DNA of 63,981 nucleotides, filler included, from Jimgerdemannia flammicorona (GCA_003990765.1; 3 parts of 3 records of this genome joined end to end with filler, not necessarily neighbours in it); one strand, 5' to 3'. Counted from the first letter of the whole stretch, positions 10,365 through 63,981 are shown. Notes: generated by a model not told the origin, from the letters alone. Program-made: numbers and translations.

Positions 10365-10746
10365 GAATTGGGATAAGATGAGTGCTAGTGCTGGATATAG
10401 ATGTTGTGGGTGGTATCACTGAAAACGGATGTTACTGACTCGCTGACAAATGTTGACTGACCAGACTGAGGAAACAGACATTGGATTACTGAATTGAGAT
10501 AAGGTGAGTGCTAGTGCTGGATTCAGTTGTTGGGGGTGATATCACTGGAAATGGATGTTACTGACTCGCTGACAAATGTTGGCTGACCAGACTGAGGAAA
10601 CGGATGTCGGATCACTGAATTGAGATAAGGCGAGTGCCAGTGCCGGATTTGGTTGTTGGGGGTGATATTACTGGAAACGGATGTTACTGACTCACTGACA
10701 AATGTTGGCTGACCAGACTGAGGAAATAGATGTTGGATCACTGAAT
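10365..10746. repeat. Tandem repeat, three ~126-bp units
   Basis: GTTACTGACTC recurs at 10431, 10557 and 10683 (period 126). Confidence 0.9.
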
Positions 10747-11664
10747 GGTAAAGTACCCTTCATCAGTGAACCAATCATCTTGCTGGGTTGTGACTTCTTC
10801 ATTCTGTTCTTCAAAGGGTGGGAGCGCCAGCCAGGAGGTGAGGGGGTAGAATTGTGACCAATCATCTTCGATGACATTCTCCAACCCTTGGACTACTTGA
10901 AGGCAGACAGAGGATTGGTAGATTCTTTGTTCCTCCTCTTCTTCTTCCTCAGATCCTCCAGTTTCCATATTGGTAGGGACTTTTGGGACTTCTTGATTTG
11001 GTTTCCAAACGATGAGGTGCAAATTGTAGCTGACAGGGTAGTGAGTAGTTGGGGTTGCTCCAACAGGTATTGTAATGGTAATGAGTGGTCCTTCAAAGAT
11101 TTCCATGAGACTTATTAGGTGACCTTGATGGTTGTCTCGGAGTGGAGTAATGTGAAAGTCTGGTTAAGTGGGCTTGGTTTGTTGGCTTTCTATAGCAACC
11201 CGGTTACTACCAATAGAGTCAGCTACTTCTGATTCTATCCAGTCTGCATCTTCAGTTGAGAGGTGGGCAAGACTTCCAGTAGTCACTCCTTGTAAGTATG
11301 CTATAGCCCAGGGAATATGGCGGAAGATTTGGTGGACATGGAGGGCTCTCTTGATTAGCTAGCTGGTGGTTAACATTTTGGCAATAAGGTCTTCCTGGTC
11401 GCCTTCTTGGGTTTCATTACAAAGGTGGTGTCCAATTTCGTAATCATATCAGAGGGTCATTTGTTCAGTGGTATCTTTGAGCTGTTGGGTCATTATGTAC
11501 TAGTAATTGATGAAGTGTCCAAGATCCTCAGTATAGAAGTTCAGATGTTCAGAGGTGTCTGGACACCAAATAGTCTTCTTGATAGCTTCAAGGATTAGAG
11601 TCTTTAGGCCAGGCAAGAGGGAAGAGTGGCAGGAGGTCTGGTTGGGGCAGTGGATAGGAGGCAT
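10738..11664 (-). pseudogene. Disrupted copy of the family-X ORF (ORF3 homolog)
   Basis: The ORF fragment MEIFEGPLITITIPVGATPTTHYPVSYN...GLENVIEDDWSQFYPLTSW closely matches 43188-44174. Upstream part has stops. Confidence 0.8.
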
Positions 11665-13478
11665 TGTGTGGTGGGTACTTGTTCTTTGGTGCTGATTTCT
11701 GAGGCAGAGTATGGCTCTTTAAATAACGTAGTCTTCCTTTTGGCTTAGATTATCATTGCTCTTTTTGGGGTGATCACCTAATAGGTCAGGCTGTCTACAT
11801 ATTCGATTGTCATGCCATTATGTCATCTGATCTTAGCAGTTACCAGTACTCCATTATTAATTGCATATGTCACAATATGTCAAAGCACATTTGCAACACA
11901 CCATTCAAAGTTGAATTATCCATCAGTTCATCACATGCACATAACAACATCAGGTACATACTGCCTTGAAAAGCATACGCAGGCATTCTCTGATTGAATT
12001 TGGAACATCACTCTCAGTTTCCATATTTTTATTATATTTGTTGTGTTGTAACTTCAACCCCATATAAAAGATCTTGCCCATAGATGCATATGAATATCTT
12101 TATTAAAACAATGAAAGATAAAAGAATATTAGGGGTCGCACCACAGTGGCCATGGATTTTAGAAGAGTAAGTTCTTCATTAATGTTATTATTTACTCTCA
12201 TGTTGCCAGGATATAGTAGCTGATATCTAGTTATAACTCTTGAACAAGAGATATTTGCAAAATTTCTTTATAATTTTTTTAACTAGTTCTTTTTTTTTTA
12301 CAAAGTTATAATTTTTTTTATTATTTTTTTATTTGAATAATAGAATATAGAGTTTATTTCTTTTAAAGTTAGTCACTTTTATATATAAGAGAAAATTGAG
12401 ACAGTTACTAGAAAATTGATCATTTCTATATTAATAATAGTAATTAGTAATTTCTATTAATTGATAAGTATAATAAACATACAATCCTTTCTCTGCTACC
12501 ATACCAGTTACAAAGTTTTGGTAGACAACCTTCTGAGTCTCTTTTTTACAACTTATATACTCTCTATCTCAGGTTAGTTTACTGTATCTATTGCAGAGTA
12601 GTAGAAGAGAGGCAATAGTAATGTGTTGTCTCTTTATTAGTATCAGATTGGTACTTTCTCTACTTTCTTATAGTTTCTAGTATCTCTGGCTATATCTGGG
12701 GTATATTTATTTTTGATATAGTACTTTCTTCCTTTTGTTGTCACCAATAAAATATTATCTTGATATATTATAGACTATATAGAAAGTTGGCTGACTTTGA
12801 GCATCAAGTGTTAGTATATATTACCTATAAGTCTCCAGTATCTGTAGTAGAGCCTCTGAGCTTTGATAAACTTTCTAATAAATATAGTTTTGATATAGAT
12901 AATTGTTTTTTAGATGAAGTCAAAATAAGAGAGGAGATAGTCATTACAGATAAGAGAAAGAGTAATTACAGTAGATCAGTAGAGTACTAGACTAGTGATA
13001 GTTATTAGGACTATTATAGATACTACTTTAGTAAAGTCTTCTGATTTGTATAGAGTAATTAAGTGATAGATATTATTCTCAATAACCCTTAACAATATAT
13101 ATGTAAGATTAGGCTTTAGTTATTAGAAGTTATTGAGAGATCTAAGACTACTTAGATTAGATATCTTAGTTATACTCAACTAAAACTAGAAGCTGATATA
13201 TATATATAGTAATATGATTGAGACTTACAGGCTTGAGTAGTGAGGTATTGAGGGTCTCTTTTTACCTTATGTATAAGTTCTCTACTCATCTCATTAGAGA
13301 GAACTAGGCTCTATCTACTGTTCTATATTTTTGGAAAAAATTTTCTTTATCTATTACTCTATTTAAAATAGTGAGGACTTTATAAATTAGCTTAGACATA
13401 GACTTATATATATATTGAGATTTCAGATATATACCTTCAGTTATAGATATATAGTTACTTTCTCTCTAGTAGTAGAAA

Positions 13479-14875: not shown

Positions 14876-14926
14876 ACTTTCTCTTGAATGGATGATTTGT
14901 CTCTGAAATATTCTATTTACTCAAAC

Positions 14927-15350
14927 TCTCAAGCTTCTATAATTTGTATCTCCTTGTACTATGTGATTTATACTATTATATTTTTCTAATAGTATCTCTT
15001 GATATATCTAAAGTCTCCTGGAGCTACTTCTTAAAAATAAGTTAGGGTTTATTTATCTTCTTTGAATAACTTGTGCATTTTTTTAATAATAGTGATCTGA
15101 GTATAAGAGAGCTAGCACTCTCTAATCTAGTCTTCTTTTTCCATCTCTGATCATAAGTTTAGTAGCTATCCCAACTTGAAGTATTCTTGAAACTCAGTCT
15201 AGTTCTGGTAGGCCTTAAAGTATGAGATTTATAATAAGTATGTCTGGACTTTACTCTGGATACTGTCAAAGGATTTTTCTAGAATCAGTAGCTCAGTAGT
15301 GCACCATTGTCTTTCTATAGCTTATTGTATAGTATTGATAATCTTGAGGA
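14927..15350 (-). pseudogene. Decayed ORF3 of Gypsy A
   Basis: Nucleotide similarity to 49216-49641 at the same position between integrase and 3' LTR. Boundaries approximate. Confidence 0.7.
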
Positions 15351-18300
15351 CTATAATAGTACTTTATTAGTTAGCTATAATATTTTTTAAGTCTGTTTTG
15401 GTAAATAGTAGTAAAGATAATTATACCTAAGAGTTTTTGTAACCAAAAGGTGGTTCTTTTTATATCTTGTATAAAATAAGGTCCTTCTTACTTAGACTCT
15501 AGTTTTTATAACTATAAAGCTTCTACCATATTCTAATATACTAGAACTTTGTCACCTATCTTGATAATCTCTAGAGGCTTGTATATTTTTTCTGCATTAT
15601 TCTACTATAGTGTCTGCACCTTGATTATATAATCCTCAGTCTTTTTTCTGATTTGATATAGTTTCTGTATTTCTATATTCATATATTTCCATATAGTATC
15701 TCTATTAGATAATAAGATTTCTTAAGAACTTTCTTCTCTAAACATCATCTCTTAAGAGGTGAAATAGGTACTTTGTGATCAAATATCCTGAAGAGCAAAT
15801 AATGCTATTAGTAGATAATGATTTCAGTTTTTGTAGTTATTATAGATTTTGGTAATAATATTTTTGAGGGTCTTATTTGTCCTTTCTACTTATCTATTTT
15901 CCTGAGAGTGATAGGCTATAGTCTGAATATGCTGGATCTTATACTTCTTATAGAGAATCTCAAAGAACTAGTTTATGAATTCTGTTTCTCTATCTGTAGT
16001 TACTTATGCTGGGGTCTTGAATTGGCAGATGATTTCTTTGTTGAAGAAATCAGCAATTGACTGTGTGTTGGCTTCTTTGAGGTATCCTACCTCTATTTAT
16101 TTTATAAAAAGTCTACAATGATAATGATATATCAGTTACTATTCAAAGTCAATAGTAGAGGGTTGATTACATCTATTACAATGTACATATGTGAAGGATA
16201 CTGGTTTTATGTGTATTGATTTTGGGATCTGATTTCATTGGTCTTATTTCTGTTTCTAGTATTTATTATAAGTCTTAACAAATCATCTGATGTCTTTCTC
16301 TATTCCTGGTCACTACATTGTTCTTTTTACTTTATTGTAGATATTTGTTCCTCCTAGATAGCCAAGTTTATATACTTATTTTATTGCTTACTCCTTCTTG
16401 TATTTGGGTATAACTAGTAGCTTTCCTTTCTTTAGTATTTCTTCATCAGTCTTAAATTATTTCTATATATTATTAATAATCATTTGTATCCATTCTTTCA
16501 GATATTGGAACATCTTTTACTGTTCCAGATAGGTGATAATTCTATAGTAAAGTTCTTTATTTATGGTTGATTTACTAGTTGGGGGTCTTTAGAGTATCTA
16601 TGAGAGAGTATCTGCATTGGCATTAGTTCTTCCAGAGCAGTATACAATAATTACATCATAAGCTTGCAACTTTATAATTTATCTAGTATAGATTTCTTTG
16701 GGTTATCCAGTGGTCAGCAGCTAGGTGAGAGCAGAGTAGTCCATCTGAATGGTGAAGTGTCTCTCTGTTAGGTAGTAGTGGAACTTCTTTATAGCCCAGA
16801 TAACTATGAGATATTCCAACTTATAGGATTCATATTTCTTTTCTGCTCCTCAGGTTCCTTAGCTTAGATATGCAATAATATACTCTACTTTGTCTTTCTT
16901 CTGTATCAGAACTGCTCTTAGTCCTTGTATACTTATATCTACAAGATGAATTCTTAGATCCAATCAGGTCTTCTGAGGATGAGTGCTTGGGTCAGCCTAA
17001 TCTTAAGTTTATTGAATACTTTTTGTTATCTGCTAGTTTATTGGAACTTGACATTCTTCTTATTGAGTTTGTAAATTGGGCCTGCAATATTGGAGAATCC
17101 TCTAATAAATCTATAGTAGTATGAGACAAGTCCCATGAAGGCTTAGGCTTCAGTAATAGTAGTGGACCTTAGATATGCTACTATTACTTGAATCTTGAGA
17201 AAGTCTGTATATATTTCATCTCAGTTGATGATATAACCAAGATAGGAGATCTTGATTTCTGCAAACTTGTACTTCTTGGACTTGATGTAAAGGCTATGTT
17301 TTCTTAGCTTTTCCATCATCTGCTAGATATACTGCAGATGTTCTTTGGCTGTCTTGCTGTAGATGATAATACATATCATCTATATAAACTATCATCTATC
17401 TTCCCATATTATAGCAAAAGATTTTATTTATCATTTGCTAAAAGCTTGCTGATATATTATATATTCCAAATGATATTTACAGATAGATATAGGTTCTATC
17501 TAGAGTAATGAAGGCTGATTTTTCACTTACTGCTTTGGTGAGACTAATCTGATAGAATTCTGAGTATAAATCCAAGATACTGTAGTACTATACTTCATCT
17601 TCCAGAGTTACAAGGATATCACTAATGAGGGGTAGTGGTTGATAATCCTTCTCTATAGTCAGGTTGAGCTTCTTGTAATTGGTACAGAGTCTTGAGGCAA
17701 ATTCTTCTGATTTGCTTCCTTTTTTAAAGACTAATATGACTAGTGAAGCCCAGGGACTACTGGCTTTTTTAATAATACTGGCTTCTTCCATCTGCTTGAT
17801 TTCTTCTCTGAGCCATTCACAATAGGCTGGTGGAATTGGCCTTGCTTTTTGGTAGATTGGTTCAGTGTCTCCTGTATCTATATTATAATAGTAGTATAGA
17901 GTCTTTTCTTGATATTATTGAAGTCTGTGGCTAGGATATCCTTAAATTTATACAATATCTTCTTGAGTTCCTTCTTGAGCAGAAATTTATCTCTAATGAT
18001 ATAGTTATGCTTATTTGTAGTTTCCTTCTTCTTGTGATCTAGTTTAGTAATCTTGGTGCTAATAAATACTCCTCTTCATAGATCTGAATCCCTTCCTTCC
18101 TCTTTCCATTTCTTCTAACTTCTTGACTTCTATGATCTTTAGCTGAAGAACTGGAAAGATCAATATCTGTACTAATCAGTCTTTCTTTTTGATTAGAAAT
18201 GGAATTATAGGATTATAGTTTCTAGCAATGAGTAGTATTTCTCCAATATAATCCAAATTGATGACTTCTCCTTCAATAGTAATCTCACTTTTGACCAGAC

Positions 18301-42993: not shown

Positions 42994-43093
42994 NNNNNNN
43001 NNNNNNNNNNNNNNNNNNNNNNNNNNNNNNNNNNNNNTTAATTAATTAANNNNNNNNNNNNNNNNNNNNNNNNNNNNNNNNNNNNNNNNNNNN
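42994..43093. other. Artificial assembly gap spacer (N44-TTAATTAATTAA-N44)
   Basis: Exactly 100 bp, linker at 43038-43049. Confidence 0.95.
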
Positions 43094-43187
43094 CAAGATG
43101 ACCCAAGCCAAAATGAAGACCACGTTATTTAAGGAACCCTACTCCGCCTCTAGGATCGGCACCAAAGAACCAAGTACCCACCACACA

Positions 43188-44174
43188 ATGCCTCCTATTC
43201 GCCGAACCAACCAGACCTCCTGCCACTCTACCCCTTTGCCTGGCCCAAAGACCCTGATCTTTGAAGCTATCAAGAAGGCCATCTGGCGCCCAGATACTTC
43301 CGAACACTTGAACTTCTACACTGAGGACCTTGGACACTTCATCAACTACTGGTATATAATGACCCAACAGCTCAAAGACACTACCAAACAAATGACCCTC
43401 TGGCATGACTATGAAATTGGACACCGCCTTCGCAATGAGACTCAAGAAGGTGACCAGGAAGACCTCATTGCCGAAATGTTAACCACCAGCTGGCTAATCA
43501 AGAGAGCCCTCCGCGTCCATCAAATCTTCTGCCATATTCCCTGGGCTATAGCACACTTGCAAGGAGTAACAGCTGGTAGCCTCTCCCATCTATCAACTGA
43601 AGATGCTGACTGGATAGAATCCGAAGTAGCCAATGCTATTGGCAGCAACTGCATTACCGTAGGAAGCCAACAAACTGAACCTACTCAACCAGGTTTCCAC
43701 ACCACCCCACTCCGAGACAACCATCAAGGTCACCTAATGAGTCTTATGGAGATATTTGAAGGACTGCCCATCACTATAGAGACACCCGTTGGAGCTACCC
43801 CAACCACCCACCACCCTGTCAGCTACAATTCACACCTCATCATTTGGGAACCAAATCAAGAAGAAGCCCAAGAAGTTCCTGTCTTTGAAGAGGAGACCCA
43901 AGAATTCCAAGACCCTGCCCCTGAGGAAACCCCCTCTGACACTGAAACTGACGAGCCTTCAGAAGAAGAAGAGGAGCAACAAAGAGTCTACCAGTCCTCT
44001 GTCCGCATTCAAGCTGTTCAAGGGTTGGAAAATGTTGTTGAAGATGACTGGCCACTTTTCTACCCCCTCACCTCTTGGCCAGCGCTTCCCCCTTTTGAGG
44101 AGAGATATGATGAAGAAGAAATCGCAACTCAGCAAGATTTGCCCACCGTGGACGAATGGTACTATTCCCTCTAG
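43188..44174 (+). CDS. Intact TE-encoded protein of unknown function (long ORF3 homolog, acidic/Pro-rich C-terminus); frame open from 43098
   Basis: Stop-free ORF. ALRVHQIF...IAHLQGVT aligns with Gypsy ORF3 AKRIYKLF...IDHLRGVT. The MPP start codon is conserved in copy 1. Confidence 0.7.
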   Translation: MPPIRRTNQTSCHSTPLPGPKTLIFEAIKKAIWRPDTSEHLNFYTEDLGHFINYWYIMTQQLKDTTKQMTLWHDYEIGHRLRNETQEGDQEDLIAEMLTTSWLIKRALRVHQIFCHIPWAIAHLQGVTAGSLSHLSTEDADWIESEVANAIGSNCITVGSQQTEPTQPGFHTTPLRDNHQGHLMSLMEIFEGLPITIETPVGATPTTHHPVSYNSHLIIWEPNQEEAQEVPVFEEETQEFQDPAPEETPSDTETDEPSEEEEEQQRVYQSSVRIQAVQGLENVVEDDWPLFYPLTSWPALPPFEERYDEEEIATQQDLPTVDEWYYSL

Positions 44175-44580
44175 AGTACCGCCTATCAGCTGTGAGAACC
44201 AAGCTTTTAGTCAGCATCCGTTTTCAGCATTGCCACCCCCCCACAACCGTTTCTGGCAACAATCAGCAATCATGTCAGCTCATCTGAATTCAGCGTTGCT
44301 ACCCAGTACCACCGTTTTCAGCATTTTGTCAGCAAGTCCGTTTTCAGCGTTGCTACCCTCCACAACCGCTTCTGGCAACAATCGCCGCATCCATATCCGT
44401 CCGTATCAGCAAGTCAGCAAGTCCGAATCCAGCATTGCTACCCAGCACAACCGAATCCAGCATTGCTATCCAGTGCAACCATTTTCAGCATCTTGTCAGC
44501 AAGTCAGTCCTTCACATCATGCAAGCCAATAGCATAGCGAAGTTTGCCACAACGTAGTATACCTTAGCCTTAGTCGCGCC

Positions 44581-44639
44581 CCCTCATAGCTAGCAAACTT
44601 GTATAAATAACCCATATTCTTAGAGTGAATAAACCTCAG
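44581..44639 (+). promoter_or_regulatory. LTR core with TATA box (TATAAATA) and poly(A) signal (AATAAA)
   Basis: Near-identical block in all five Gypsy LTRs (e.g. 62985-63041) and at ~10241-10295. Confidence 0.65.
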
Positions 44640-44994
44640 CCAGATAGTTTTACAGAGAAAACACACTGCCTCCAAGAGACCGGATAAATTCTGAGAACAA
44701 GATAACCTAGAGCAACGGATTGCTCGGAAGTTTGAGTTAAAGAATTTTCTCTTGCCACGGAAAGAAAGAAAACATTCAAGACCCGCCGCTAAGGAAAGCC
44801 GCACTAGACCACCATTTCGACTGCCATTCAAGACCACGGACCACCCGCAAGCCAGATAGTTTTACAGAGAAAACACACTGCCTCCAAGAGACCGGATAAA
44901 TTCTGAGAACAAGATAACCTAGAGCAACGAATCGCTTGGAAGTTTGAGTTAAAGAATTTTCTCTTGCCACGGAAAGAAAGAAAACATTCAAGAC
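44639..44994. repeat. Direct duplication of ~145 bp (44639-44782 / 44851-44994)
   Basis: GCCAGATAGTTTTACAGAGAAAACACACTGCC...AAAACATTCAAGACC occurs twice here and only once in copy 1. Confidence 0.9.
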
Positions 44995-45896: not shown

Positions 45897-46147
45897 CATA
45901 TATCCCTTATGTCATAATTAGATACAGACAAATACATCTATAAAAAAATTATTATTTTTATATAAAATTTTGATATAATATTTAATTTAAATTTTTTAAA
46001 TTTTTTTTTTTTGATAAAACTCAAAAATTATATTTTGAAATTTTTTTTGGACATAAAATTTGATGTAAAATTTTTAATAAAAAAATTTTTTAATTTAATT
46101 TTTTTTTGCAGACAAATTTATCTGCAAATTGATATAAGAGATATATG
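45897..46147. mobile_element. Small AT-rich MITE-like insertion
   Basis: Inverted ends CATATATCCCTTATGTCA / TGATATAAGAGATATATG interrupt the Copia integrase remnant. ATATTAAT is repeated nearby on both sides. Confidence 0.55.
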
Positions 46148-48250
46148 TTACTATATTAATAACTTTGGCCCAATAATAATATCCTAATTCTGCTGTATTC
46201 ATTATTATTCAAGCCATTTCAACAATTGAATGATTAAATCACTTAGCCATACTATTCTGCTGAGGTATATAAGGAGCTATCATTTGATAGTATATACTAT
46301 ATTTCTTCAAGAACTGCTTAAATACATTATTGACATATTTACATCAGTTATCTGATTACATAGTACCTAATCTATATCTTGTTTCATTCTTAGTAATTAT
46401 TTTGAATTTTTTAAATTTCTTCAAGACTTTACTCTTTACTGATAGAAAATATACATATACTTTATATATACATATAATTATTGATAAATATGATGGAATA
46501 CTCTTTCTAAAGTATAATGATACATGCATTAGCCTGCAAATATCCATATATATAAGGTTAAGAATTCTGGATACATACTTTAATTATTCTTTAAATAGTC
46601 ACTGAGATGTTTTATTTTCCATACATACTTTGTAGAAGTTATCTTCCAGATGTATATTTTTCAGTAATTCATTTATCAAGCCACTTTAGATCATCCTTTC
46701 AATGCTTAATTTACTGATATGTTCAAAGTATTGATGCTATGTATTGATATATTAGATATAGTTATTATATATACAGAGGCTTCTACATTATTTTTATTCA
46801 GCATACTATTGATTGTATAAAGATTCCCATATTTCAGAGCTGTTATTACTTCATTATTATATAAATCATATATATATAGTAGTATTCTTTATATGTATGT
46901 ATATTTCTTTATTACTATAGAATATCATCTTTTCTATCTAAAAGAGATTCTTATCAATCTTTAGAGTATATAATATATCTAGGAATATGTTGGTGAGTTC
47001 TATGATATTACTATAGAGATGTATCCTCATATTTTCTTTCCTTAAGTGTAGATGATATTGTTATCTTTTAATTTAATAGATATAAAGTATTTGAAAAACT
47101 CATATATAAAGAACTATTCTCTGTGTGGCATTATATATTATATAGCTCCAGAATCTATGAGTTAGATATTATTGTTATTAGCTTTATTGATATTTATACT
47201 AGTATTACTGGTGTCATTATTTTACTTTGGGTGAAAAATATTTTACTGACTAGTTATGGATAATGAATTGATAGTAGAGAAACTGCTCATATGTAGATGT
47301 AGATTTCATGCTGACTTTCATGCTGATACAACTGATAGTAGGGTCATCTATATATTGCATAAAGAATATATCACTATTATTATCTGCTTTTGAATTTTAT
47401 ATATTGCTATACTTCTATTTATCTCAATAGTTCTCATGATGACTGTTATTGCACTTATTCTTACTACTCTCCTTGTCATTTTCTCAATGATAACAGTGGT
47501 GCTTCTTATATCCATACTTGCTATAGTATTTACAGTATCTATCATACTTGATTGATTGACTGGATTGGTTATTATCATATTGATTTTGGATTTTGGTTTA
47601 TTGCTCATATAGTCTGCACTTTTGACCTTATTTGACACTACATCCACAGGACCCATAGAAGGGATTTTCATTATTATTGGTGGTACTCTTTCCTTGGTAC
47701 ATTTTCTCATTCATGAGACTCATTATTATATAGGTATACTCTATGAGCTTGCTGCTCTTATATATGGTTATTATTATGATATGATATATCTTAAAGAGGT
47801 TTCTAATAAGAGCCAAGACCTTGTCTTATCACTTATATCTTATACTGATATGCTTAGGAAATTCATCTGATTTACCAGATTGTTGATATGACTGACATAT
47901 TCATGGATTATTTCATTTGAATTTATTTATAGATTAAATAGCTGAGTTATTGGGTGGAATTGATTTGATACAGATACTTACATATGATGATTGCATAGAG
48001 TCTTCCATATCTTGTGAGCTATTCCAGCATATATTATAAGCTTTATTTGTAAATTTAACAGTATGAATATAATCTCATATAAAGCTTAATAATTATTTAC
48101 AATATTGTAATCTTGAATTAGCACTTATAGCTTTATATTCTCTACCAAACTGCATTCATCAAGATGATTTATCATATAAAACACCCAAATTACATAGTCT
48201 CTCCCATCAAAGATTGATATAGATCTCTTAGCTATATTTATACTTATAAC

Positions 48251-48669: not shown

Positions 48670-48701
48670 CTTATAACTAGGACTGTGTTTTATATACCTA
48701 T

Positions 48702-49166
48702 TGTAATGTGGTGGATGCTAAGATGGGCAAGTACATCAGATCTCTTTATCTTGAATTCTTGTCTTCTTGACTCCCAGAGTCGGTAGTTCCTTGAGGCCAA
48801 ATGTGTTTAAAGAGGTAATCCCGAAGGTTCTTTTATTGGTATACTTGTTCTTTTTCTAATACTTTCGATCTGAGGTTTATTCACTCTAAGATACTGGGTT
48901 ATTTATACAAGTTTGCTAGCTATGAGAGGGTGGCTAAGTAATAAATGAGTCATTTGGACTTTGTCGAAATATTTGGACAATGTCTAAATGCTATACTAAA
49001 TTGGGATGTTCGATTTGGATAATGTCTAAAGATTTGGACAATGTCTAAGAATTTAGACAATGTTGAAATCGAGAACTGCTTTTATAAGACTATACTACTT
49101 TGGGACTGGGTGTGATCAAGTGTTTATTCCCTATTTCCTTCTTCCAAATTTGGCTGTACCATCACA
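48702..49166 (-). repeat. 3' LTR of Gypsy B
   Basis: Direct repeat of 59986-60451. Confidence 0.95.
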
Positions 49167-49215
49167 ACTTCCTCCTGAATAGATGGTCTCATCCCTGAGG
49201 TATCTATTCAAACTC

Positions 49216-49641
49216 CTAGGCTTCAACCATCTGTATGGTCTTGTACTGTACAATTTGCTGCATGACTGTTTCCCAATGATGTCTTCTTACTTTCTTGAAG
49301 TCAGTGGGAGTTACTCCTCTCAGGTGGTCTATTGTTGATTCATCTTCTTGGAATAACTTGTAGATTCTTTTGGCAATAGTGATCTGTAAGTGGGAGAGTT
49401 GACACTCGGCAATCCAGGCCTCTTTGGTCTTTGCAGGATCCTGATTGAGCACCTGTCTAAGCTTGAAGTACTCTTGGAATTCTGCCCAATATTGATAGGC
49501 TCTAAAGTACGAGATCTGAGAGAGATGAGTCTGCATGATACTCTGAATATCCTCATAGTATGCCTGTATGGTTGGAGGCTCAGTAGTGTGCCATTGTCTT
49601 TCGATGGCTCTTTGGACAGCACTAGTGATCTTGAGTGCCAT
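49216..49641 (-). CDS. Gypsy ORF3, intact 141-aa protein of unknown function between pol and the PPT
   Basis: Stop-free ORF whose ATG overlaps the last ~20 nt of pol (pol stop at 49622-49624). Homologs in Gypsy A and family X. Confidence 0.75.
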   Translation of the reverse strand: MALKITSAVQRAIERQWHTTEPPTIQAYYEDIQSIMQTHLSQISYFRAYQYWAEFQEYFKLRQVLNQDPAKTKEAWIAECQLSHLQITIAKRIYKLFQEDESTIDHLRGVTPTDFKKVRRHHWETVMQQIVQYKTIQMVEA

Positions 49642-52624
49642 TGCAGTACTTTGGTTGGTACTTCTTGAGTCAGTTTCGATGAATGGTGGTGGGGATTATT
49701 GTGCCTGAGGGCTTTCATAGCCAGAAAGTAGTCTCTTTTATATCTTGTACCAGATAAGGTCCTTCCCACTTAGGCTCCAGTTTTCATGATCAAGAAGCTT
49801 CTACCATATTCCAATATACTAGGACTTCATCTCCTATCTTGATAATCTCCAGGGGTTGTGGGTTTTTTCTACATTGTTCTGTTGTAGTGTCTGCACCTTG
49901 ATTATGTAATCCTCTGCCTTTTTCCTTATTTGATGTAATCTCCATATCTCTGTATCCATATGCTTCCAGACTGCATCATTAGTTGCTGACAAACTTCCAC
50001 CAGAACCTTCTTTACCAAATAGCATTTCTCGTAGTGTAAAATGGGTGCTTTGTGATTGTATATCCTGCAGAGCAGATAATGCTATTGGTAGATAGTGGTC
50101 CCAGTTTCCATATTTGTCACAGATCTTGGCAATGATGTTCTTGAGGGTCTTGTTGATTCTTTCTGCTTGTCCATTTCCTTGTGGGTGATAGGCTGTAGTC
50201 TTGATGTGTTGGATCTTGTACTTCTTGTAAAGAACCTCATGGAACTGGTTGACAAATTCTGTTCCTCTGTCTGTAGTAACTTGTTTTGGGGTCTTGAATT
50301 GGCAGATGATATCTCTGTGAAAGAAATCGACAATTGACTGTGCATTGGCTTTCTTGAGGGGTCCAGCCTCTACCTATTTTGTAAATAGATCCAATATTAC
50401 AATGACATATCAGTTGCCAGTCAATGTCAGGGGTAGAGGGCCAATTACATCCATTGCAATGTGGGTAAATGGTATTGGTTCGATGTCTGCTAATCCAGGG
50501 GCTTGATCCCATCAGTCTTGTTTCTGTTTCTAGCATTTGTCATAGGTTCTAACAAATTGTCTGATATCTTCTTCCATTCCAGGCCACCACATGGTTCTTT
50601 TTGCTTTGTCATATGTATTTGTTCCTCCTACATGACTCTGTTCATATACTTCTTTCATTACTTGATTCTTCTAGTACTCGGGGATGACTAATTGTTGTCC
50701 TTTCTTGAGTGTTTCTCCATCAGTTTCGAATTGTTTCCATGTCCAATTAATAATTGTTTTTGTCCATTCTTCTAGATGCGGGGGCATCTTTCGCTGCCCC
50801 AGGTAGCTGATGATTCCATAGTACAGCTCCCTATTCATGGTGATTTTGTGGGGGTGGGGTCCTTCAGGGTGTCTATGAGAGGGCATCAGCATTGGCATTG
50901 GTTCTTCCAGGGTGGTGAGTGATCATGGCATCATATGCTTGCAGCTTTATGATCCATCAGGCATAGATTCCTTTGGGCTCACTGGTAGTGAGCAACCAGG
51001 TGAGTGCTGAATGATCTGTCTGGATGGTGAAGTGTCTGCCAGCCAGATAGTAGTGGAACTTCTCCATAGCCCAGATGACTGCAAGGCATTCCAACTTGTA
51101 TGATTCATAGGACTGCTTGGCTCCTCGGGTACCTTGGCTGAGATAAGCTACCATATATTCAGCACCATTCTTCTTTTGTGCAAGGACAGCTCCAAGTCTC
51201 ATTGCACTGGCATCCATCTGCAGAATAAACTCTTGAGTCCAGTCAGGTCTTCTCAGGATTGGGGCCTGGGTCAATCTGGTCTTGAGCTCATCAAAGGCTA
51301 GTTGCTGCTGCTGAGTCCACTAGAACTTAACCTCTTTTCTGAACAGATTATAGATAGGGCTGGCGATGTGGGAAAATCTTCTAATAAATCTTCTGTAGTA
51401 GGATGCAAGTCCCATGAAGGCTTGGGCTTCCATGATACTAGTAGGTACTGGGTATCCTGCTACTGCTTTGATTTTTGTGGGGTCTGTGTGTATTCCTTCA
51501 TGGTTGATAATGTGTCCGAGGTATGCAATCTCTTCTTCTCTGTACTTGCATTTCTTGGGCTTGATGTAGAGGCCATGTTTGTGAAGTCTTCTGAGGATTT
51601 CCTCAACATATTCCAAGTGCTCCTTGGCTGTTCAGCTGAAGATGATCACATCATCTACATATACCATCATCCATTTTTCCATAACATCCCTGAAGATGCT
51701 GTTCATCATTTGCTGGAAGCTTGCTGGTGCATTGCACATTCCAAAAGGCATGCAAAGATAGACATAGGTTCCATCAGGAGTGATGAAGGCTGATCTTTTG
51801 CTGGCTTCAGGTGTAAGGCCAATTTGGTAAAATCCTGAGAACAGATCCAGAGTGGTGTAGAATTGTGATTCATTTCCCAGCATGATAAGAATATTGCCAA
51901 TGTTTGGCAATGGTTGTCTGTCCTTCTCTGTGACCTCGTTGAGTCTTCTATAGTCTGTGCAGAGTCTTGGTGTAAATTCTCCTGGTTGGCTTCCTTTTTT
52001 TGGTACAAGGATGATGGGGGAGGACTAAGGGCTGCTGGCTTCTTCAATGATACTGGATTCCTCCATTTCCTTGATCTCTGCCTTGAGCCATTCTCTGTAT
52101 GCTGGTGGAATGGGGCGGGCCTTCTGATAGATTGGCTTTGCATCTCCAGTATTGATGTCATGATAATACAAGAGTTTCTTGGTCTTGATGTCCTTGAAAT
52201 CTGTGGCCAGTACATCTTTGAATGTATGCAAGAGGCTCTGCAATTCTTCCCTTAGGGGAAAGTTCCTTCCAATTGTATAGGTGTGTTTGTCTTGGCTTTC
52301 CTCCTTCTTGTGCTCCAACTCAGTGATCTTAGTTACTGTGAGGACTCCTCTTTCTGTAGAGCCGAATCCAGCTCTCCCTCGCTGAGTTTGTCTGATGTTT
52401 GTGACCTCCTTGATTCTTGGATTAAGGACAGATAGGATGAGCATTTGTGCCAGCTGATCCTTCTTCCTTACTTCAAATGGGATTGTTGGGATGTGGTTCC
52501 CGGCAAGGAGAAGGATTTCTCCAGTATAATCCGAATTGATGACTCCTCCTTCTATAGATATTTTGCTTTTCACCAGGCAACTCCTTGTCTTGAGGATTCT
52601 GAAATGGTTTGGTGGGATGGTTAC

Positions 52625-55600
52625 TATTGAAATATATAGGTTACAACTCGATATATGGTGGTGCAGCCTTTCTTGACTACATCATCATGTAAACATCACT
52701 AATTGCGACGTGTAAAAGCACGTAAGAATTAGCAATAAACAGTTTGCTTCTCCCTCTATTCCAAGTATTCCACAACAAAAGGTTATGAGCCTCGGTTAGT
52801 GGCTATACACCCCTCTTACACATACACTACACTACACTATATAATGGCTACTAGTTCAAGCAGTGCTAGCAGCGCACTGCCAAGTTCTAGTAACATGAAC
52901 ACAAACACAGCCGGAACAGGTTTTGCTTCCATGACGATGAATATTCTGGCAGTGGCGCCAACATCAAAGGTAAAGAGGATGATTCCTGTCTTTGATGGTA
53001 AGGACTATGCCATATGGGCATACCATATAAAGAATCTCCTAGAAGAATGTGGTTTGGAGGACTACTGGAAGCCATAGGCACAAGTAACGACATACGACGC
53101 CACGAAAGATTACAAAGTGCTAAGCGAGATTACGTTCACCCTTTCAAATGCACAAATGAAACTGATAATCAATGCTATGACAGCGAATGAAGCCTGGGAG
53201 ATTTTACACAATTACCATCAACAGGCATCTGCATCAAACAGATTCCCCTTAAAGGTGCAACTATTCAATCTTCGAATTAAGTTCAAGGAGAGCATCTGGG
53301 ACTATGCTAATCAAGTCGACGAGCTGGCGAATCAAGTGAATTCCCTTACATCTATGCTGGCGGACACCATCAAGGATGAAGACAAGGTCCTGGCTCTTAT
53401 ATGAGGCCTTCCCGAAGCGTACAACATGGTTGTCACTGCTATGAGGGAATCCGGCAGATTATCAGATTATAAGCATGTCGTCACAAGCCTTTTAAATGAG
53501 GAAACAAGGCTAGGCAGCAACAATGCCAACATGGAATACAACGAGAAAGCATTCTATGGTAGAGCACATGGATGAGGCAAAGGCAAGCCAAACAAAGGTC
53601 AAGGCCAGCAATGTGAGAAATTTGATGGTAAATGCTTTTACTGTAATAAGCATGGACATTGTGAGCAGGACTGCAACCATAAGAAGAAGGAAAAGGGTGG
53701 CCAACAGCAAGGACAATGGCAGGCAAACATGGTGGATGCCAACAACGAAAACAGCGGTGGCAGAGGTCTATTCTTCACAGAAGCGGCAACCTATCCATAT
53801 GCAGAAACCATTGAAATAGGAGGAAATTTGGAACCAACTTCCAGTTCCACCAATGCTAGTTGCAGATGCAATTCCACCAGTTCAACATCTATAAATCCTG
53901 GTCAACAAAATACTTTTCAGATAGTGAAAAATGGTGATGTCAACATCGGTGCCAGTGCAAATGTAAGCTATATGCTGAACAGTGCTTATACATGCAGTGA
54001 AGAGGTCTGGCTCATGGATTCGGGCACAACACAGCATATGACGGCTCACCAGGAGTGGTTCTCTACATATGAGAAGTTTGAGCATCCCATACCTATCAAG
54101 CTAGGTGACAATAACGTCATTTATGCTCAAGGGAAACGCAATGTAGGCATACATCTACATGGAAATGTTGATGAACCTTCAGGCACCTTCGTGGACATAC
54201 TATATGCTCCAGATATAGGCAAGAACCTCTTCTCGATAGGCAGGATGATGGCTCGCAGGGACAGAGGAGTAAATATATGCCTGAATGGTGTAATGGTAAT
54301 CAATCTGAAGAACAATAAGGAGTTAATGTATGCATCAAAAAAGGGAAATCTATATGCAATCAATGGCACGCCGAGTGATGCATCATTCGCATATTCTGCA
54401 ACTACAACTGGAGAGGATCTCTGGCATATATGGCATGAATGCTTAGGACATATCGGCAAGACGAGCCTGGAATGGATGATAAGGAGCAAGTCCATGTATG
54501 GTTTACTGGACTATATGCCACTGGATTTCTTTTGTGATGGATGCGTGGCAAACAAGGCTTCCCAGCAACCTTTTCAGGAATGAACAAAGCAAGCAGCTGG
54601 CATTCTCAATTTGATTCATATGGATATTTGTGGCCCTATGCGAATGGTATCACACTCTGGAAAGAAGTATTTTATTACATTCATTGATGATTATACATGC
54701 AAAGTCCATGTATATTTCATTGCGGGGAAAAATGAGACATTCGACAAATTCTGGGAATTCAAGGCAGCCATGGAGAATGAGACGGGACATAGAATACGAA
54801 CCCTATGCTCAGATAATGGCAAAGAATACGTCAACAAAGGTTTCAGACACTTCTTGAAGAAGAACGGTATACAGCACTCTATGACAGCCCCTTATACACC
54901 TCAGCAAAACGGTGTGGCAGAATGATTCAATTGAATGGTAGTGGAAATGGCTAGAACGATGATGAATATGGCCAGCTTACCAAAGTCCTTTTGGGTGGAA
55001 GCGGTGAATATGGCAGCATATATTCGAAATCGTTGTTTCTCTCGAGCTCTAAGAAAGGATCCTGGCAAGCAATCCAGGAATGACAGCAATCTTACTCCTG
55101 AGGAATTATGGAATGGTTCCAAGCCTGACATTTCACACTTACGCATATTCAGAAGTGAGGCATATGTTCTGGACAAAGGTGACAACTGAGGCAAGTTTGA
55201 ACCTAAGGCAGATAAGCATATATTTCTTGGATACGATGGAGCAGGATACAGACTTTGGAACCTGCAGAAACGACGTATGATCATTTCACGTGACATATAG
55301 TTCAAAGAGACTAAGCAGGAAATTTATGTGGAAATTCCTATCTCAAATCTAATGTTGAATTCGACAGTACAGCCAGCAACATCTACGCCAACTGCAAAGG
55401 CTAGCGGAACAACATCTATACCCAGAATGACACTGAAGACTACACCAAAGACATCCTTGTGACCTATGCCAGCAAAAATGCAACCCATTCAAATGGAAAT
55501 GAAGTTGCAAGAACCAAGATAATGGAAATTACAGATGAGGATGATGAAGAGGATACCTTTCTGAAGGGTAAGAAGAAGCGCAAATCTGGGATGGATAATG

Positions 55601-57694
55601 AAGTCCAAGTGGATCTGGGAAATTACTGGAACCCACCCAAGTCATCTCATCGCAAACAATATCACATGAACTATGCCTGTGAATGTGCTTATATAGCAAT
55701 GATCAGTGAGCCAGCACACTACGACGAAGCCATTCATTCGAACGATAAAAAGGAGTGGAAAAAGGCTATGGATGAGGAGTATAACTCACTCATCGAGAAT
55801 GACACATAGGACTTGGTCTCTCTTCCGGCAAATCAACAAGCCATAGGATCCCGATGGGTGTATAAAATTAAACGCAATAGCAACGGCGGCATAGAATGAT
55901 ATAAGGCCTGATTCATAGCAAAGGGGTATTCACAAGACTTTGGAGTTAACTACGATGAAACATTTTCCCTGGTATTTAAGCTTACTTCACTTAGAATACT
56001 TCTTGCGATCGGAGCCAAGTATGACTATGAGATACATCAAATGGACATTAAGACAGCCTTCCTAAATGGAGATGTGAATACTGAACTATACGTTCTTCAA
56101 CCACAAGGATACAAACTATAAGAAAATGATGGAAATGAGCTTGTATGTAAATTACGCAAAGGGCTCTACAGAATCAAGCAAGCAGCAAGGTTGTGGAATT
56201 GAAAGATCGATGGATATCTTCTAGACAATGGATTCAAGTATTGTGAAGCCGATCCATGCATATACACTCAACATACATCCTCAGGAATGGTTTACCTGGG
56301 AATTTGGGTTGACAATATTATTTTAGTCAGAATGGCAAGTGAAATCAATGACGTAAAGGCTACACTATGCCAGGAATTCAAAATGATGGACTTAGGTGAA
56401 GCGTCCTATCTCCTTGGAATATCGATTACACGTAACAGGTGCAAGCATGCTATATATCTAATGTAAGCCACATATATTCGAAATATTCTTGAGCGATTCA
56501 GGATGAGTGAATGTAAACCAGTTGGGACACTTATGGAAACATTTGTGAAACTAAAGACGTCTGACACTATGCCTGAGGGAAATGACATCCCCTATCAACA
56601 AGCCGTGAGATCCCTCATGTATCTTATGCAAGAGATGAGACCTGATATCTCTTTTACAGTAAACAAAGCGGTACAGTATTCTTCATGCTACGACAATAGC
56701 CATTGGATGGCAATCAAGCGAATTTTCAGGTACATCAAAGGAACTGCAGACTATATGCTCAGTTTGGGTGGTGATAATGGGCAAAGCAGGAGTACTATAC
56801 ACCTACTTGGTTCTTGTGACACCGATTGGACCAGCGACTTAGATGACAGAAGGTCTACGACTGGATACATCTTTAAAGTAAACAACAGAGCCATTTCATA
56901 GCAAATGTGTAAGCAACCTTCAGTGGCAACATCCTCTATGCAAGCAGAATATCAAGTGTTATCAATGGCAACAAAGGAGGCTATCTGGCTTTGAGAACTG
57001 TTAAAGGAGCTGGGATACCAGCAACGGCACTCTACGCTACTCCAGCAAGATAACCAATCAATGAATGCTTTGGCGAAGAACCCTATACATCATGCCAGAA
57101 CGAAACACATTGACATACAGCATCATTTCATATGTGAATGCGTGGAAAATGGCACTATACACCTTGAATACACCCCAACAGAATATATGACAGCAGATTC
57201 ATTGACTAAAGCCCTTCCAAAGGCAAAGTTTGACTTATGTATGAAAGGAATGGGTATTACAGGACTCTACACTGGTAATTAAGGACAATTTGGGATGAGA
57301 TAGGATAATAGATTGACAGCAAGCTTCTTTAACATTGATTCCTGTATTGGTGATTTCTACCAACATTGCTCATCTACGAATGTTCACATCTCTACTTTTC
57401 AACCTATTTTTTCGAGCTTTAAGCAGGCAATTCAGGTGTTTTTTCAGTTTCTCGATAGTGGTCTGAACATTACAGCAAGATTTGCAGTGGTTATAGCTTA
57501 GTATTGCAGTTTGGGAATTTGCATATCTCGTTGAGCGGGAGTATTGAAATATGTAGGTTACACCTTGATATATGGTGGCACAGCCTTCCTTGACTACATT
57601 ATCATATAAATATCACTAATTGTGATGCATAAAAGTGCATAAGAATTAGCAATAAACAGTTTGCTTCTCTCTCCATTCCAAGTATTCCACAACA
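52625..57694 (+). mobile_element. Ty1/Copia LTR retrotransposon, full length, pseudogenised
   Basis: 153-bp LTRs at 52625-52777 and 57542-57694, 5-bp TSD GTTAC, PBS GGTTATGAGCC (internal tRNA-iMet type), PPT GAGCGGGAG. Confidence 0.95.
52844..57282 (+). pseudogene. Copia gag-pol (gag, PR, INT, RT, RNase H)
   Basis: FDGKDYAIW, CFYCNKHGH knuckle, WLMDSGTTQHM, IHMDICGP, APYTPQQNGVAE, QMDIKTAFLNG, RRSTTGY, RTKHIDI, ADSLTKAL. Numerous in-frame stops. Confidence 0.93.
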
Positions 57695-59985
57695 GTTACT
57701 TCAATTCCTGTTCCTAGAATGGTAGTGGTCTATGGTTCGAGTATTGTGTGTGTTGTGGTGGATAGGTCCATTCCTGCTGCACTCTCCGATTTGTATTGTG
57801 GCATGACTGCATCAGGGTGGATTCTTTGTATCTTGACTGTGATGTCTTCTTCATCATTGCTGTCATCCAATAGTTCTGGTAGTCCATCTTCTGGTTCCTC
57901 CTGGTTCTTCTTTGGCTTGTTGGTGATCTTCTTCACCTCAATGATATAAGAGTAGCAGCAATCCAAGTACTGGGCACAGTACATTCTTTCACCATGGGGG
58001 CACCTTCCTAGTGGGGCATATCTGTCTGCAATTCTTGTATACCATTCTTCCTCTGTCAATTGCTTGCCTTTTCCTTTCTTCATAGTAACCATATAGGCTT
58101 CTTCTTCTTGGTCTTCCTCCATCTCGGGGTGGACTCCTTTGTGGACATTGATGGAAATTCTGATCTTCTTTCCCCAGTAGACGATCTGCATCTTCTGTGC
58201 ACTGAGGTTGATCATGGCCTTGGCTTTGTGAAGCCACTGGTTGCCAATGAGGATATCATAGTTAGTTGCATTGGTGACAATGACATCCACAGAGATAGTG
58301 GCTTCGCCAAACTTGATTGGTATATCCTGAATTTTTCCCAAGGGTGTTGCTCATGTCCCATCAGCTGTGACAAACACCAATTTGGTGGCTTCTTCTATCT
58401 CCCAACCTAGGCAGTCTACTGCTTTCTTGATAATGAGACATCCTCCTGCTCCTATATCAATAATGGCTTCAATGACCCAGTCTTCAATCTGGCAGGTAGC
58501 ATAGGCTGATGTTTTCTGGTTATCTTCACTCTCTTCATCTGAATCTTCTTGTGCATTGTTGGCTTTGATTATTCTGTAACCTTGGTCTTTGCTGATATCT
58601 GAGATTCCTGTCCTCATTTGTTGTCTGAAGGTTGGGATTTCTGCTAGTTGACCAAAGGTTGCAATGACCTTTTGGTCCTTGAGGTCCTTAAAGATATCAT
58701 ACTTGAAGGTCTTGCTCTTGCACAATTTCTGCTCCTTCTTCCCTTCACTTGATGGGGTGGTGTTTCTGATGATATCTTCTATCACTCATTCAAGTTCAGC
58801 ATCTTGTTCTAGCTCCATGTCTTGATCAGCTTTGCTCTGCTGGTTCTCTTTTTCGATGACTGTTTCTGGTTATCTTGTTTATGTCTGGGCCTTCTTAGGA
58901 GGTCTGCCTGGAGGTCTTTTGTAGGGACTGGATCGGACATCCTTCTTGCTTGAGATGGCAGGGTAAGCTTCCTATTCCTCCCTCTTTTTCTCAGATTCTC
59001 CAATCTCCTCGAAGGTGATAGTGTTTGCTTGTTCATGGTTCCTAGTTGCATTACTTGGATTGGCCTTTCGCTTGGTTTCTGTCATGCATTCAGAGGCATA
59101 GTGGCCTTCTTCTCCACAGTTATAGCATGTTATTGATTGTCTTGCATTTGTAGTGGCAAACTTCTGTACTGGCTTCTTCTTGAACTCTTTAACTACATCA
59201 CTGAGGTATGCAGTTATTTCTGTAAACTGTTTGGCCAGTTCCTCCATTGGGTCGACCCTTCTTTGGTCTTGTGGTTGCGGTTGTATATTCTGGTTGACTA
59301 TGGTAGCTGGGATTGTATTGTTGACTCTTGGTGCTTGTTCGATTTTTACTCCAGTTATCCTTTCCATTGTATGACCTTGAGGGTGTCTGGCAGTCCAGTA
59401 TCTTTGGGCATAGGTAACCTTCTGTCCCAGGTCCAGTAGTATTGGGGTAGATCAAATAGCTAAAGCGATTTCTTGGTGAATGCCTTTCATAAAGGTATTC
59501 TCAGCCACTTGGTCTTGAACTGCATTGGGGTAGTCAGCAAGGACTATTTAATGTCAGATTCTTGTATAGAATGTGTTTGGGTCTTCAGACATTCCTTGGC
59601 AGATAGTATTCAGTTGATCTTTGAGTACCTGTTTGATTTTATCTGTATAGTAGGTTGTTCAGAACCAGGTCTTGAAAGCTATGATTCTTGCTAGATCATT
59701 GGCTGCTTGTACATTGGCTGCAGTAAATGTGGTTCTTGCTGGGCCTCGGAGGCTTACAGAGAGTAGGGCTACTTGTTGTACTATACTTAAGGTCCTTACA
59801 GCGGCATACTGCTCAAAATCATCAATGAAGGTGATGATTGATTCATCAGATATATATCTATGGAATACAGGGGGTCTCATATCCATTCTGTCTGATTGTA
59901 TTGTGTACATTCTGGTTGTGGTTGTTCATTGTTCAGCTTGAAAGTGAGGGATTCATCTTGAATCACCAGCCAATGGGCACTAAGT

Positions 59986-60451
59986 TGTAATGTGGCAGAC
60001 ACTAAGATGGGCAAGTATATCAGATTTCTTTATCTTGAATTCTTGTCTTCTTGACTCCCAGAGTCAGTAGTTCCTTGAGGCCAAATGTGTTTAAAGAGGT
60101 AATCCTGAAGGTCCTTTTATTGGTATACTTGTTCTTTTTCTAACACTTTCGATCTGAGGTTTATTCACTCTAAGATACTGGGTTATTTATACAAGTTTGC
60201 TAGCTATGAGAGGGTGGCTAAGTAATAAATGAGTCATTTGGACTTTGTCGAAATATTTGGACAATGTCTAAATGCTATACTAAATCAGGACATTCAATTT
60301 GGATAATATCTAAAGATTTAGACAATGTCAAAGAATTTAGATAATGTTGAAATCGAGGACTGCTACCTATAAGGCTATACTACTTTGGGACTGGGTGTGA
60401 TCAAGTATCTATTCCCTATTTCCTTCTTCCAAATTTGGCTATACCATCACA
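59986..60451 (-). repeat. 5' LTR of Gypsy B
   Basis: Direct repeat of 48702-49166, followed in element sense by the leader and gag ATG. Confidence 0.95.
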
Positions 60452-60842
60452 CTATTGAGGTAGTTATATCTATAGTTGACAGAACACTCATAATTAGTAT
60501 ATTTATTTCCACACTCACATTACTAGAGTGATCATCAGACATTTCTAGTATAGTGTATTTTAATGAGGTGTTTTTGCTATAGTTGCTTAGAGTGAGTAGG
60601 TCTTATATCTTTGTTATAAAGGGGGAATATTTTATTAAAGTTGTATAGATCACATATTTCATACTTTACTAATGAATAATATAAATCTGATAGAATGGTA
60701 TAATAACAAATTGATTCATCAAGTTATCATCCTAATAATTTAGCCAAAGTATAAGTTAGCTATTTAATATATTATATAAATAACTTATTAAATTTATTTA
60801 GTTTTTCACCAAGTTTTTCTTCAGACCTGGTAAATTTCAAAG

Positions 60843-62722: not shown

Positions 62723-62745
62723 ATAATATAAGAGAATAAATCTAT

Positions 62746-63627: not shown

Positions 63628-63629
63628 AC

Positions 63630-63981
63630 GGTCGCATCTCTCTCCACTATAATTCACGTTACACACACTTTTCAACACACTTTCGAAGCATTTATTGGCG
63701 AGAGATACTAGGGCAATGTCAACTAGCAAGCAAGCCGACACGCGTACTGGGTCGGGTGGACCTGGGGCCTTCGACTGGCAGACTGTCGGGAGAGGGTATG
63801 GATTGGGGATGGGATCTTTCGGTGGCTCGAGTGGGCAGGGCGGCTCAGGCAGTGGAGGTAGCACTGGTGGGGGGGCTGGAGGGAAGCAGGGGAGGAGCTT
63901 TGCGGACACGCTGAGGGGTGGAGGCTGGCCGATGGGCACTCGTGGTGGACCGGCAGGAGGGAAGGGGAAGCAGAAGGATGG
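63630..63981 (+). mobile_element. 5' end of a subfamily-2-like LINE (ORF1 ATG ~63716), continuing beyond the window
   Basis: ATTCACGTTACAC leader. MSTSKQADTRTGSGGPGAFDWQTVGRG resembles LINE F ORF1 RTGQGSGGAFGWQQVRRRG. CpGs retained. Confidence 0.8.

Follow-up and report, generated by a model that had tools for sequence, protein, structure and literature searches.

Behind its integrase and ahead of its 3′ LTR, a Ty3/Gypsy element from Jimgerdemannia flammicorona carries a third open reading frame (ORF3), which is very probably a genuine protein-coding gene of this Ty3/Gypsy lineage. Substitutions among DNA copies of ORF3 point to constraint on one reading frame, predicted relatives of the protein share the same length, and a second, longer protein found in the same DNA carries a divergent form of the domain. 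The copy in the element itself is, to judge from its sequence, a dead copy of this gene. A preliminary description of the DNA was largely right in what it observed, but the argument that it gave, an intact frame next to a pol gene full of stops, is wrong.

The window and its elements

The window, i.e., the whole stretch of DNA that was analyzed, is 63,981 nt long (from GCA_003990765.1). Two linkers within it show that it is made up of three contigs. Features that seem to abut the linkers are truncated by the end of a contig; an example is the family-X ORF, with its first base at 43098. Coordinates of the features are in Table 1.

Table 1. Coordinates of ORF3, family X and associated elements in the window
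Feature	Position	Strand	Remarks
ORF3 locus of Gypsy B, full family extent	49204..49665	−	open 141-aa part at 49216-49641
3′ LTR of Gypsy B	48701..49166	−	purine run AGGAGGAAG before LTR
5′ LTR of Gypsy B	59985..60451	−	94.2% identity to 3′ LTR
gag (CCHC knuckle) and protease of Gypsy B	57695..59676	−	split off from remaining pol by Copia insertion
dUTPase of Gypsy B	52028-52681	−	domain match
RT of Gypsy B	51323-52024	−	domain match
RNase H of Gypsy B	50960-51319	−	domain match
Integrase pieces of Gypsy B	49625..50934	−	zinc-binding region, rve core 49837-50373, GPY/F-type C-terminus
Copia insertion, gag	53078-53401	+	
Copia insertion, Pol beta-barrel and pre-integrase	53576-54580	+	
Copia insertion, rve	54584-54922	+	
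Copia insertion, RVT_2	56203-56463	+	
Decayed ORF3 of Gypsy A	14944..15378	−	between integrase 15338-15748 and 3′ LTR 14396-14875
Family-X ORF, copy X1	43098..44174	+	358 aa; first bases of contig, after linker
Decayed second family-X copy, X2	10744..11744	−	72% aa identity to X1
LTR-core-like piece downstream of X1 ORF	44579..44663	+	85% identity to 48846-48930 of Gypsy B LTR
Linkers, N44-TTAATTAATTAA-N44	21448-21547 and 42994-43093		join three contigs

Gypsy B lies on the minus strand of the third contig and has the layout gag-PR-dUTPase-RT-RNaseH-IN, with a GPY/F-type integrase end that reads KLEPKWEGPYLV...IHRN*LKKY. The pol frame terminates within the start of ORF3. The 141-aa open frame at 49216-49641 (minus strand) thus overlaps the end of pol, and it is followed by the purine run, ~30 nt past the family-level ORF3 stop, and then by the 3′ LTR. 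The overlap with the pol stop and the place just before the polypurine tract had been correctly described. The chromodomain that had been reported as missing after the GPY/F motif is indeed absent: Pfam searches with stop-to-stop frames from Gypsy B gave no Chromo match (E<=0.01), and there was none in the integrase C-terminus or the ORF3 of a related element, L001 (E<=0.1).

L001 is a metagenome contig of 6479 bp that represents a whole element, assembled through a collapsed LTR. Its gag, PR, dUTPase, RT and RNase H share one frame of 1258 codons, and there are three lesions, a premature stop early in gag, a pol frameshift, which falls in the integrase, and an integrase stop, with ORF3 whole. 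The ORF3 of L001 is an intact reading frame of 153 codons at 5795-6256 with the start context ACCATGG; its frame is +1 to that of pol, it overlaps the end of pol by 44 nt, and its stop lies ~45 nt before the LTR. It may be added that the ATG listed for gag of L001, at 843, is preceded by ~190 nt in which the gag frame is already open, and that at ~770-790 a TGA interrupts this frame where Gypsy B reads CGA.

In a codon-by-codon comparison with the near-intact L001, gag-pol of Gypsy B has 24 stops in ~1649 codons (gag 8, PR-dUTPase 2, RT-RNase H 4, integrase 10) and seven frameshifting indels. The statement that pol is broken is therefore correct.

Other elements surround or interrupt Gypsy B. 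A Copia-type element on the plus strand, ~52625-57695, is inserted between the protease and the dUTPase of Gypsy B, and short matching stretches (88%) flank it at 52625-52777 and 57542-57694. At 62743-63981 (plus strand) Gypsy B's family has a third copy, of which the window edge leaves the 5′ portion, with ORF3 out of view; its LTR is 91.5% identical to that of Gypsy B, and its gag starts at ~63537. The second contig, ~22000-43000, is taken up by three tandem or nested LINE-like copies on the minus strand with RVT_1 and Exo_endo_phos matches and with repeat spacings of 5817 and 4472 nt; its two strands are very strongly asymmetric, the GC skew being -0.33 to -0.50 along 20 kb. The first contig has two genes that look like ordinary genes of the host, a 465-aa ORF with a weak F-box-like match at 1687-3081 (minus strand) and a 300-aa class-I methyltransferase (Methyltransf_25, E 1.5e-18) at 8662-9561 (plus strand).

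Damage to the ORF3 copies of the window

The ORF3 of Gypsy B had been called intact, but it has been damaged at both ends. The start found in relatives (MAN[NQ]RST) would lie eight codons upstream of the present ATG; a 9-nt gap relative to these sequences has removed the ancestral ATG, and because of this loss the frame now begins at an internal Met, itself an Ile-to-Met change. At the other end, relatives have a Trp codon in place of the stop at 49216-49218 and continue for four further codons (EAWEFE). The sequencing runs listed with this stretch include none recorded as RNA. Short contigs of DNA type from three runs, each with a small share of the stretch and 80-99% alike to the window, were aligned to it, and at position 49217 all 12 of the aligned contigs have C, giving TGG on the coding strand. 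At least nine variant places are inside ORF3 among the places listed. One run contig (depth 5.6) has a joint that jumps 78 nt, 49484-49563, within ORF3.

It should be noted that the openness of this frame next to a broken pol is unremarkable. At the stop density of Gypsy B gag-pol, a frame of 153 codons would be expected to have ~2.2 stops, and one is observed (Poisson P ~0.35). Since so few stops are expected and the copy is itself damaged, the contrast between the two frames has no weight as evidence, although it had been offered as such.

A decayed copy had been reported from the same slot of Gypsy A (14380-21075), and this is confirmed by an alignment over 14944-15354 at 47% identity (E 8.5e-33). 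The Gypsy A copy has 13-15 stops, and its ATG has turned into ATA. Gypsy A is much more decayed than Gypsy B, and its LTRs (14396-14875 and 20591-21071) are 87.7% identical. C>T or G>A accounts for 749 of its 1391 derived changes, with a preference for CpA/TpG, and this transition-biased decay resembles the effect of repeat-induced point mutation. Throughout the Gypsy family there is a deficit of CpG, which stands at 0.32-0.56 of expectation in L001. AT-rich blocks, with GC down to 24-33%, are found at 12000-16000, 46000-48000 and 60000-62000 of the window.

The preliminary description mentions "four copies"; the window has two copies of ORF3, in Gypsy B and Gypsy A, and two of family X, which is treated below. 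In Gypsy B, Gypsy A and L001 alike, ORF3 is on the gag-pol strand and fills the slot between integrase and 3′ LTR.

The ORF3 protein family

A word-indexed search with the window ORF3 found seven proteins of 60-74% identity. A phmmer search of 1.84 billion cluster representatives gave three matches, all of them close relatives of ORF3, and a cluster look-up added further members; none of all these proteins has a name or a Pfam domain. A large family of such proteins in Glomeromycota, which had been suggested, found no support in any of these sequence searches, none of which was a profile search. Full-length ORF3 is 153 aa in L001, P0001, P0017 and P0021. The pairwise identity of these four is 69-85%, and they share the start MAN[NQ]RST and the end EAWEFE. 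The MAN[NQ] start is present in 12 of the 14 predicted relatives listed, and the other two start at an internal Met. As the database relatives are predicted ORFs, broken copies are under-sampled among them.

A metagenome scan with the ORF3 alignment gave 105 pattern matches, and none was confirmed. A scan with P0001 yielded L001 and L002, and the latter was dropped as a high-GC bacterial contig with a short chance motif in common. Among 76 candidates for longer or fused ORF3 homologs there were none at E<=0.01, a result that weighs little.

Selection on ORF3

Nei-Gojobori counts were made for the DNA copies in L001, Gypsy B and Gypsy A over 414 nt outside the pol overlap. In the ORF3 frame, pN/pS is 0.27 for L001 and Gypsy B (pN 0.219, pS 0.801, Fisher p 4e-22), 0.34 for L001 and Gypsy A, and 0.34 for Gypsy B and Gypsy A, values that come from three copies in three pairs, with two of the copies dead and pS saturated in one pair (0.80). 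The two other sense frames of the region give 0.68-1.48. The antisense frame that shares wobble positions with ORF3 gives 0.36-0.55; however, it has 7-11 stops per copy and is thus not coding. The remaining antisense frames give 0.57-0.92 and 1.12-1.59. For reference, pN/pS is 0.22-0.36 in gag and 0.10-0.29 in RT-RNase H. Purifying selection on ORF3 is therefore about as strong as that on gag, and the neutral ratio that had been named as refuting the idea is not what was found.

ORF3 is the fastest-evolving coding part of the element, with a pN of 0.22 versus 0.05 in integrase. Its GC content, 0.455, is that of the element (0.457-0.479 in the rest), and ORF3 is thus not a recent capture.

Mosaic structure of the elements

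Between L001 and Gypsy B the nucleotide identity is 0.80-0.90 in gag, pol and 5′ LTR, and 0.67 in ORF3. The identity falls right after the pol stop (L001 5840-6253 versus window 49204-49620). The ORF3 of Gypsy B is of the P0001 type (74%), and those of L001 and Gypsy A are of the P0021 type (85% and 71%, respectively), whereas it is the pol of Gypsy A that is the distant one, with an identity of 0.62-0.72 to L001. Fast evolution of ORF3 is not sufficient to explain how pS can reach 0.80 there when the adjoining integrase has a pS of 0.27. As ORF3 subtypes do not track the pol backbones, recombination is the simplest reading, and the pattern suggests that the ORF3 segment has been exchanged between element lineages with a breakpoint at or near the pol stop.

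Family X

A second protein family in the window, family X, had been proposed as a divergent homolog of ORF3, and the comparison of profiles bears this out. Its relatives show 75-80% identity, and most start at the Met at 43188; the X1 frame is open for 30 codons upstream of this Met, up to the contig start. ORF3 aligns over its full length, collinearly, with the N-terminal ~165 aa of family X, and the identity is 24-28% (MAFFT). The ORF3 and family-X profiles align with an hhalign E of 2.8e-5 and a probability of 74% over a 56-column core that includes the motif noticed originally, so that profile similarity is significant. In Smith-Waterman comparisons of three ORF3s with two family-X proteins, z was 5.7-8.9, and in all six pairs none of 1000 shuffles reached the observed score. 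The common block is A-x-R-[IV]-[HY]-x-[LI]-F ... A-H-[LF]-[RQ]-G-V, in a collinear domain of ~150 aa. On these alignments the family-X protein is a true divergent homolog of ORF3. It differs in having a C-terminal tail of ~160 aa that is acidic and proline-rich (pI 4.18) and ends in [W/Y]-x-x-L.

For a position of family X between integrase and LTR, the LTR side is supported but the integrase side is not. The LTR-core-like piece downstream of the X1 ORF contains TATAAATA and AATAAA, and X2 has a corresponding piece within 10070-10323; the two pieces are 85-88% identical to the Gypsy B LTR. On the upstream side, X1 starts where its contig does, and the sequence next to X2 is AT-rich and decayed. 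An in-frame integrase::ORF3 fusion was considered for family X, as by eye the upstream residues looked somewhat like the integrase end, but neither such a fusion nor an integrase remnant upstream of family X is supported: tblastn E values were above 0.3, and in local DNA alignments 68-127 of 300 shuffles equalled the score.

Tandem repeats separate the family-X ORF from the LTR-core-like piece, at 10361-10746 for X2 (three 126-nt units) and at 44200-44540 for X1 (related shorter units). They may be part of U3, and the ORF may be either ahead of the LTR or within it.

Properties of the ORF3 protein

The five family members assayed show no membrane-like hydrophobic segment, with a maximum Kyte-Doolittle 19-residue mean of 0.17-0.47 and a GRAVY of -0.57 to -0.65. 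The pI is near neutral, and the N-terminus, MANNRSTA, is polar. The protein is thus not env-like, in agreement with the preliminary description. No arginine-rich, zinc-binding or other recognizable nucleic-acid-binding motif was seen in ORF3.

Two AlphaFold models of ORF3 consist of helices only, with pLDDT values of 49.7 and 54.6, and because this confidence is low the models do not settle the fold. The whole ORF3 product is predicted to be a soluble, all-helical protein of 153 aa. Pfam has no family for ORF3, family X, the ORF3 of L001 or P0009. Profile searches for relatives of known structure in PDB (profiles A4 and A6) gave best E values of 0.26 and 0.76, which were taken as noise. None of the 447 rows from Foldseek with the ORF3 models reached E<=0.001, and VIA-align against 48,161 chains gave a best Z of 6.0 with none at Z>=8, which is under the tool's background for helical models. 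The ESM Atlas returned for ORF3 only unrelated prokaryotic and viral clusters (0.91-0.94, 136-163 shared features), which were discarded as noise, and for P0009 no usable match. The designation as an uncharacterized accessory retroelement protein thus stands. A full-text literature search found no description of the family; the search did not extend to the Figure 3 image and the supplements of PMC2864245, which may bear on the matter.

Possible roles of ORF3

That ORF3 is a genuine gene and has a role as a nuclear regulator, taken as one statement and weighted to the reality of the gene, is judged somewhat more probable than the contrary. The role considered separately, as a nuclear regulator of element expression by way of LTR activation or of genomic RNA handling or export, is proposed tentatively, by analogy, and is open to considerable doubt. 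ORF3 would most likely be translated from a subgenomic RNA, either spliced or internally started, like other retroelement third genes; such an RNA is invoked because ~1,500 gag-pol codons precede the gene. The protein would most likely act in trans within the element's own cycle, and might activate the LTR, or handle or export the genomic RNA, as do CERV of Cer1 and the regulatory genes of complex retroviruses. In its family-X form, the ORF3 domain joined to a long acidic, aromatic tail would fit an activator-like build. The regulator role is favored on the analogy with CERV and on the acidic family-X tail.

CERV is a protein of 517 aa from the Gypsy-type element Cer1 of C. elegans. It is described as encoded by five exons that include gag-frame sequence and is shown to act in genomic RNA export (PMC10309623). 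Like ORF3, it is without homologs beyond a narrow host group and is fast-evolving, as gag is (PMC10309623). The two are likened by description only, and they differ in that ORF3 has 153 aa and its own ATG, whereas CERV is spliced from five exons. As possible splice signals, a GTAAGC is present in gag and a CAG before ORF3; joining them yields no sensible product, and the three sequences compared are too few to reveal conservation. With a possible origin of ORF3 from gag in view, the ORF3 and family-X profile was compared with the gag of L001 (residues from 843 on), which gave an hhalign probability of 0.14% and an E of 0.43, with shallow profiles.

A wider and more speculative form of the regulator reading, to which only low confidence is attached, is that ORF3 and family X represent a new regulator family that makes fungal-type Gypsy elements "complex" retrotransposons. 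A helical domain, with an acidic activation-like tail in family X, would switch on the LTR or escort the genomic RNA, and the cassette would be traded between lineages.

ORF3 may instead be a cofactor or tether of integrase that binds integrase together with host chromatin or a DNA-bound factor and so steers integration, as a substitute for a chromodomain; this is possible but rather unlikely. ORF3 lies directly behind the integrase C-terminus and overlaps it, in a lineage that has a GPY/F-type end and no chromodomain, and its fast evolution relative to integrase is of the kind that host-contact surfaces often show. A chromodomain at the same position marks the commonest fungal Gypsy lineage, according to the text of the survey by Novikova et al. 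(PMC2864245). However, ORF3 resembles neither chromo, PHD and Myb domains nor any other domain of the reader or DNA-binding kind, and with its own well-placed ATG and separate frame it is not part of integrase. The chromodomain of chromoviral integrases does occupy the same slot after the GPY/F module, but it is in the pol frame, whereas ORF3 has a frame of its own, is predicted to be all-helical and has no Chromo match. The chromodomain fold is of the β-sheet-plus-helix type.

A counter-defense factor directed against host silencing (RNAi, DNA or histone methylation, repeat-induced point mutation) is an improbable role. Host attack is evident in the C>T and G>A changes of Gypsy A and in the CpG depletion, and a fastest-evolving gene with subtypes shuffled among backbones is what host conflict would be expected to produce. 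Yet pN/pS is well below 1, with no positive selection seen at the available resolution, ORF3 is similar to no known suppressor, and both ORF3 copies of the window have been inactivated nonetheless.

More doubtful still is the view that ORF3, instead of being a separate protein, prolongs Pol at its C-terminus. A programmed +1 frameshift in the ~80-nt zone where both frames are open would then yield an integrase-ORF3 fusion. Ty1 and Ty3 join gag to pol by +1 frameshifting, ORF3 is +1 to pol with its frame open for 13 codons ahead of the ATG, and the X1 frame is likewise open ahead of the Met used by relatives. But the ATG is retained in strong context in L001 and is kept in the 12 of 14 predicted relatives mentioned above, no slippery or pause motif is conserved by eye in the overlap of L001, Gypsy B and Gypsy A, and integrase-like sequence upstream of family X is unsupported by the searches described.

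Finally, that ORF3 is a chance open frame in an untranslated tail, conserved as a cis element near the polypurine tract, is very improbable and is largely refuted by sequence comparison, for although the openness of the window copy is by itself not significant, the low pN/pS is confined to the ORF3 frame, four relatives have exactly 153 codons, the domain is shared with a second family, and the ORF3 region is the least conserved in nucleotides, which is the opposite of what a cis element would show.

Comparison with other elements

ORF3 can be set beside extra genes described from other Gypsy elements. In fungi, the survey of Novikova et al. (2010) has an "add. ORF", of unknown function, in the legend of its Figure 3 (PMC2864245). 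The elements are surveyed there as chromodomain-bearing, whereas the Gypsy B lineage has no chromodomain, and the "add. ORF" is compared here by its legend alone. As described in the same text, the basidiomycete PosPlaTy3 elements have a dUTPase between PR and RT, the layout also seen in the Gypsy B lineage (PMC2864245). Another extra fungal Gypsy gene of unknown function is brtn, from the Boty-like elements of Botrytis (Zhao et al. 2011, cited in PMC8365987); going by the cited title it is antisense, in contrast to the sense-strand ORF3.

The Juno, Vesta and TelKA elements of bdelloid rotifers are similar in several respects. They are described with a dUTPase between PR and RT, a GPY/F end without a chromodomain and a variable ORF3 after pol, and their ORF3 types are exchanged between element lineages (PMC5408684), a modularity also suggested here. 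However, the rotifer ORF3s are given there as an env-like fusion protein or a transmembrane protein, a GDSL esterase or a DEDDy exonuclease (PMC5408684), and the present ORF3 is none of these.

Significance

It is with their third genes that LTR retrotransposons experiment. The capture of env by LTR retrotransposons made retroviruses. For the third genes of fungal-type elements the record hardly goes further than mentions of an extra ORF without known function. The ORF3 family belongs to elements without the usual chromodomain, and with three matches among 1.84 billion representatives it all but escapes notice in protein databases, which is a warning for annotation. At 153 aa, ORF3 is small enough to be tested directly for an influence on the activity of the LTR, the export of RNA, the choice of integration site or silencing. 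Extra ORFs after pol are already known as a kind, and to these ORF3 would add a protein family that is supported by selection and has two architectures.
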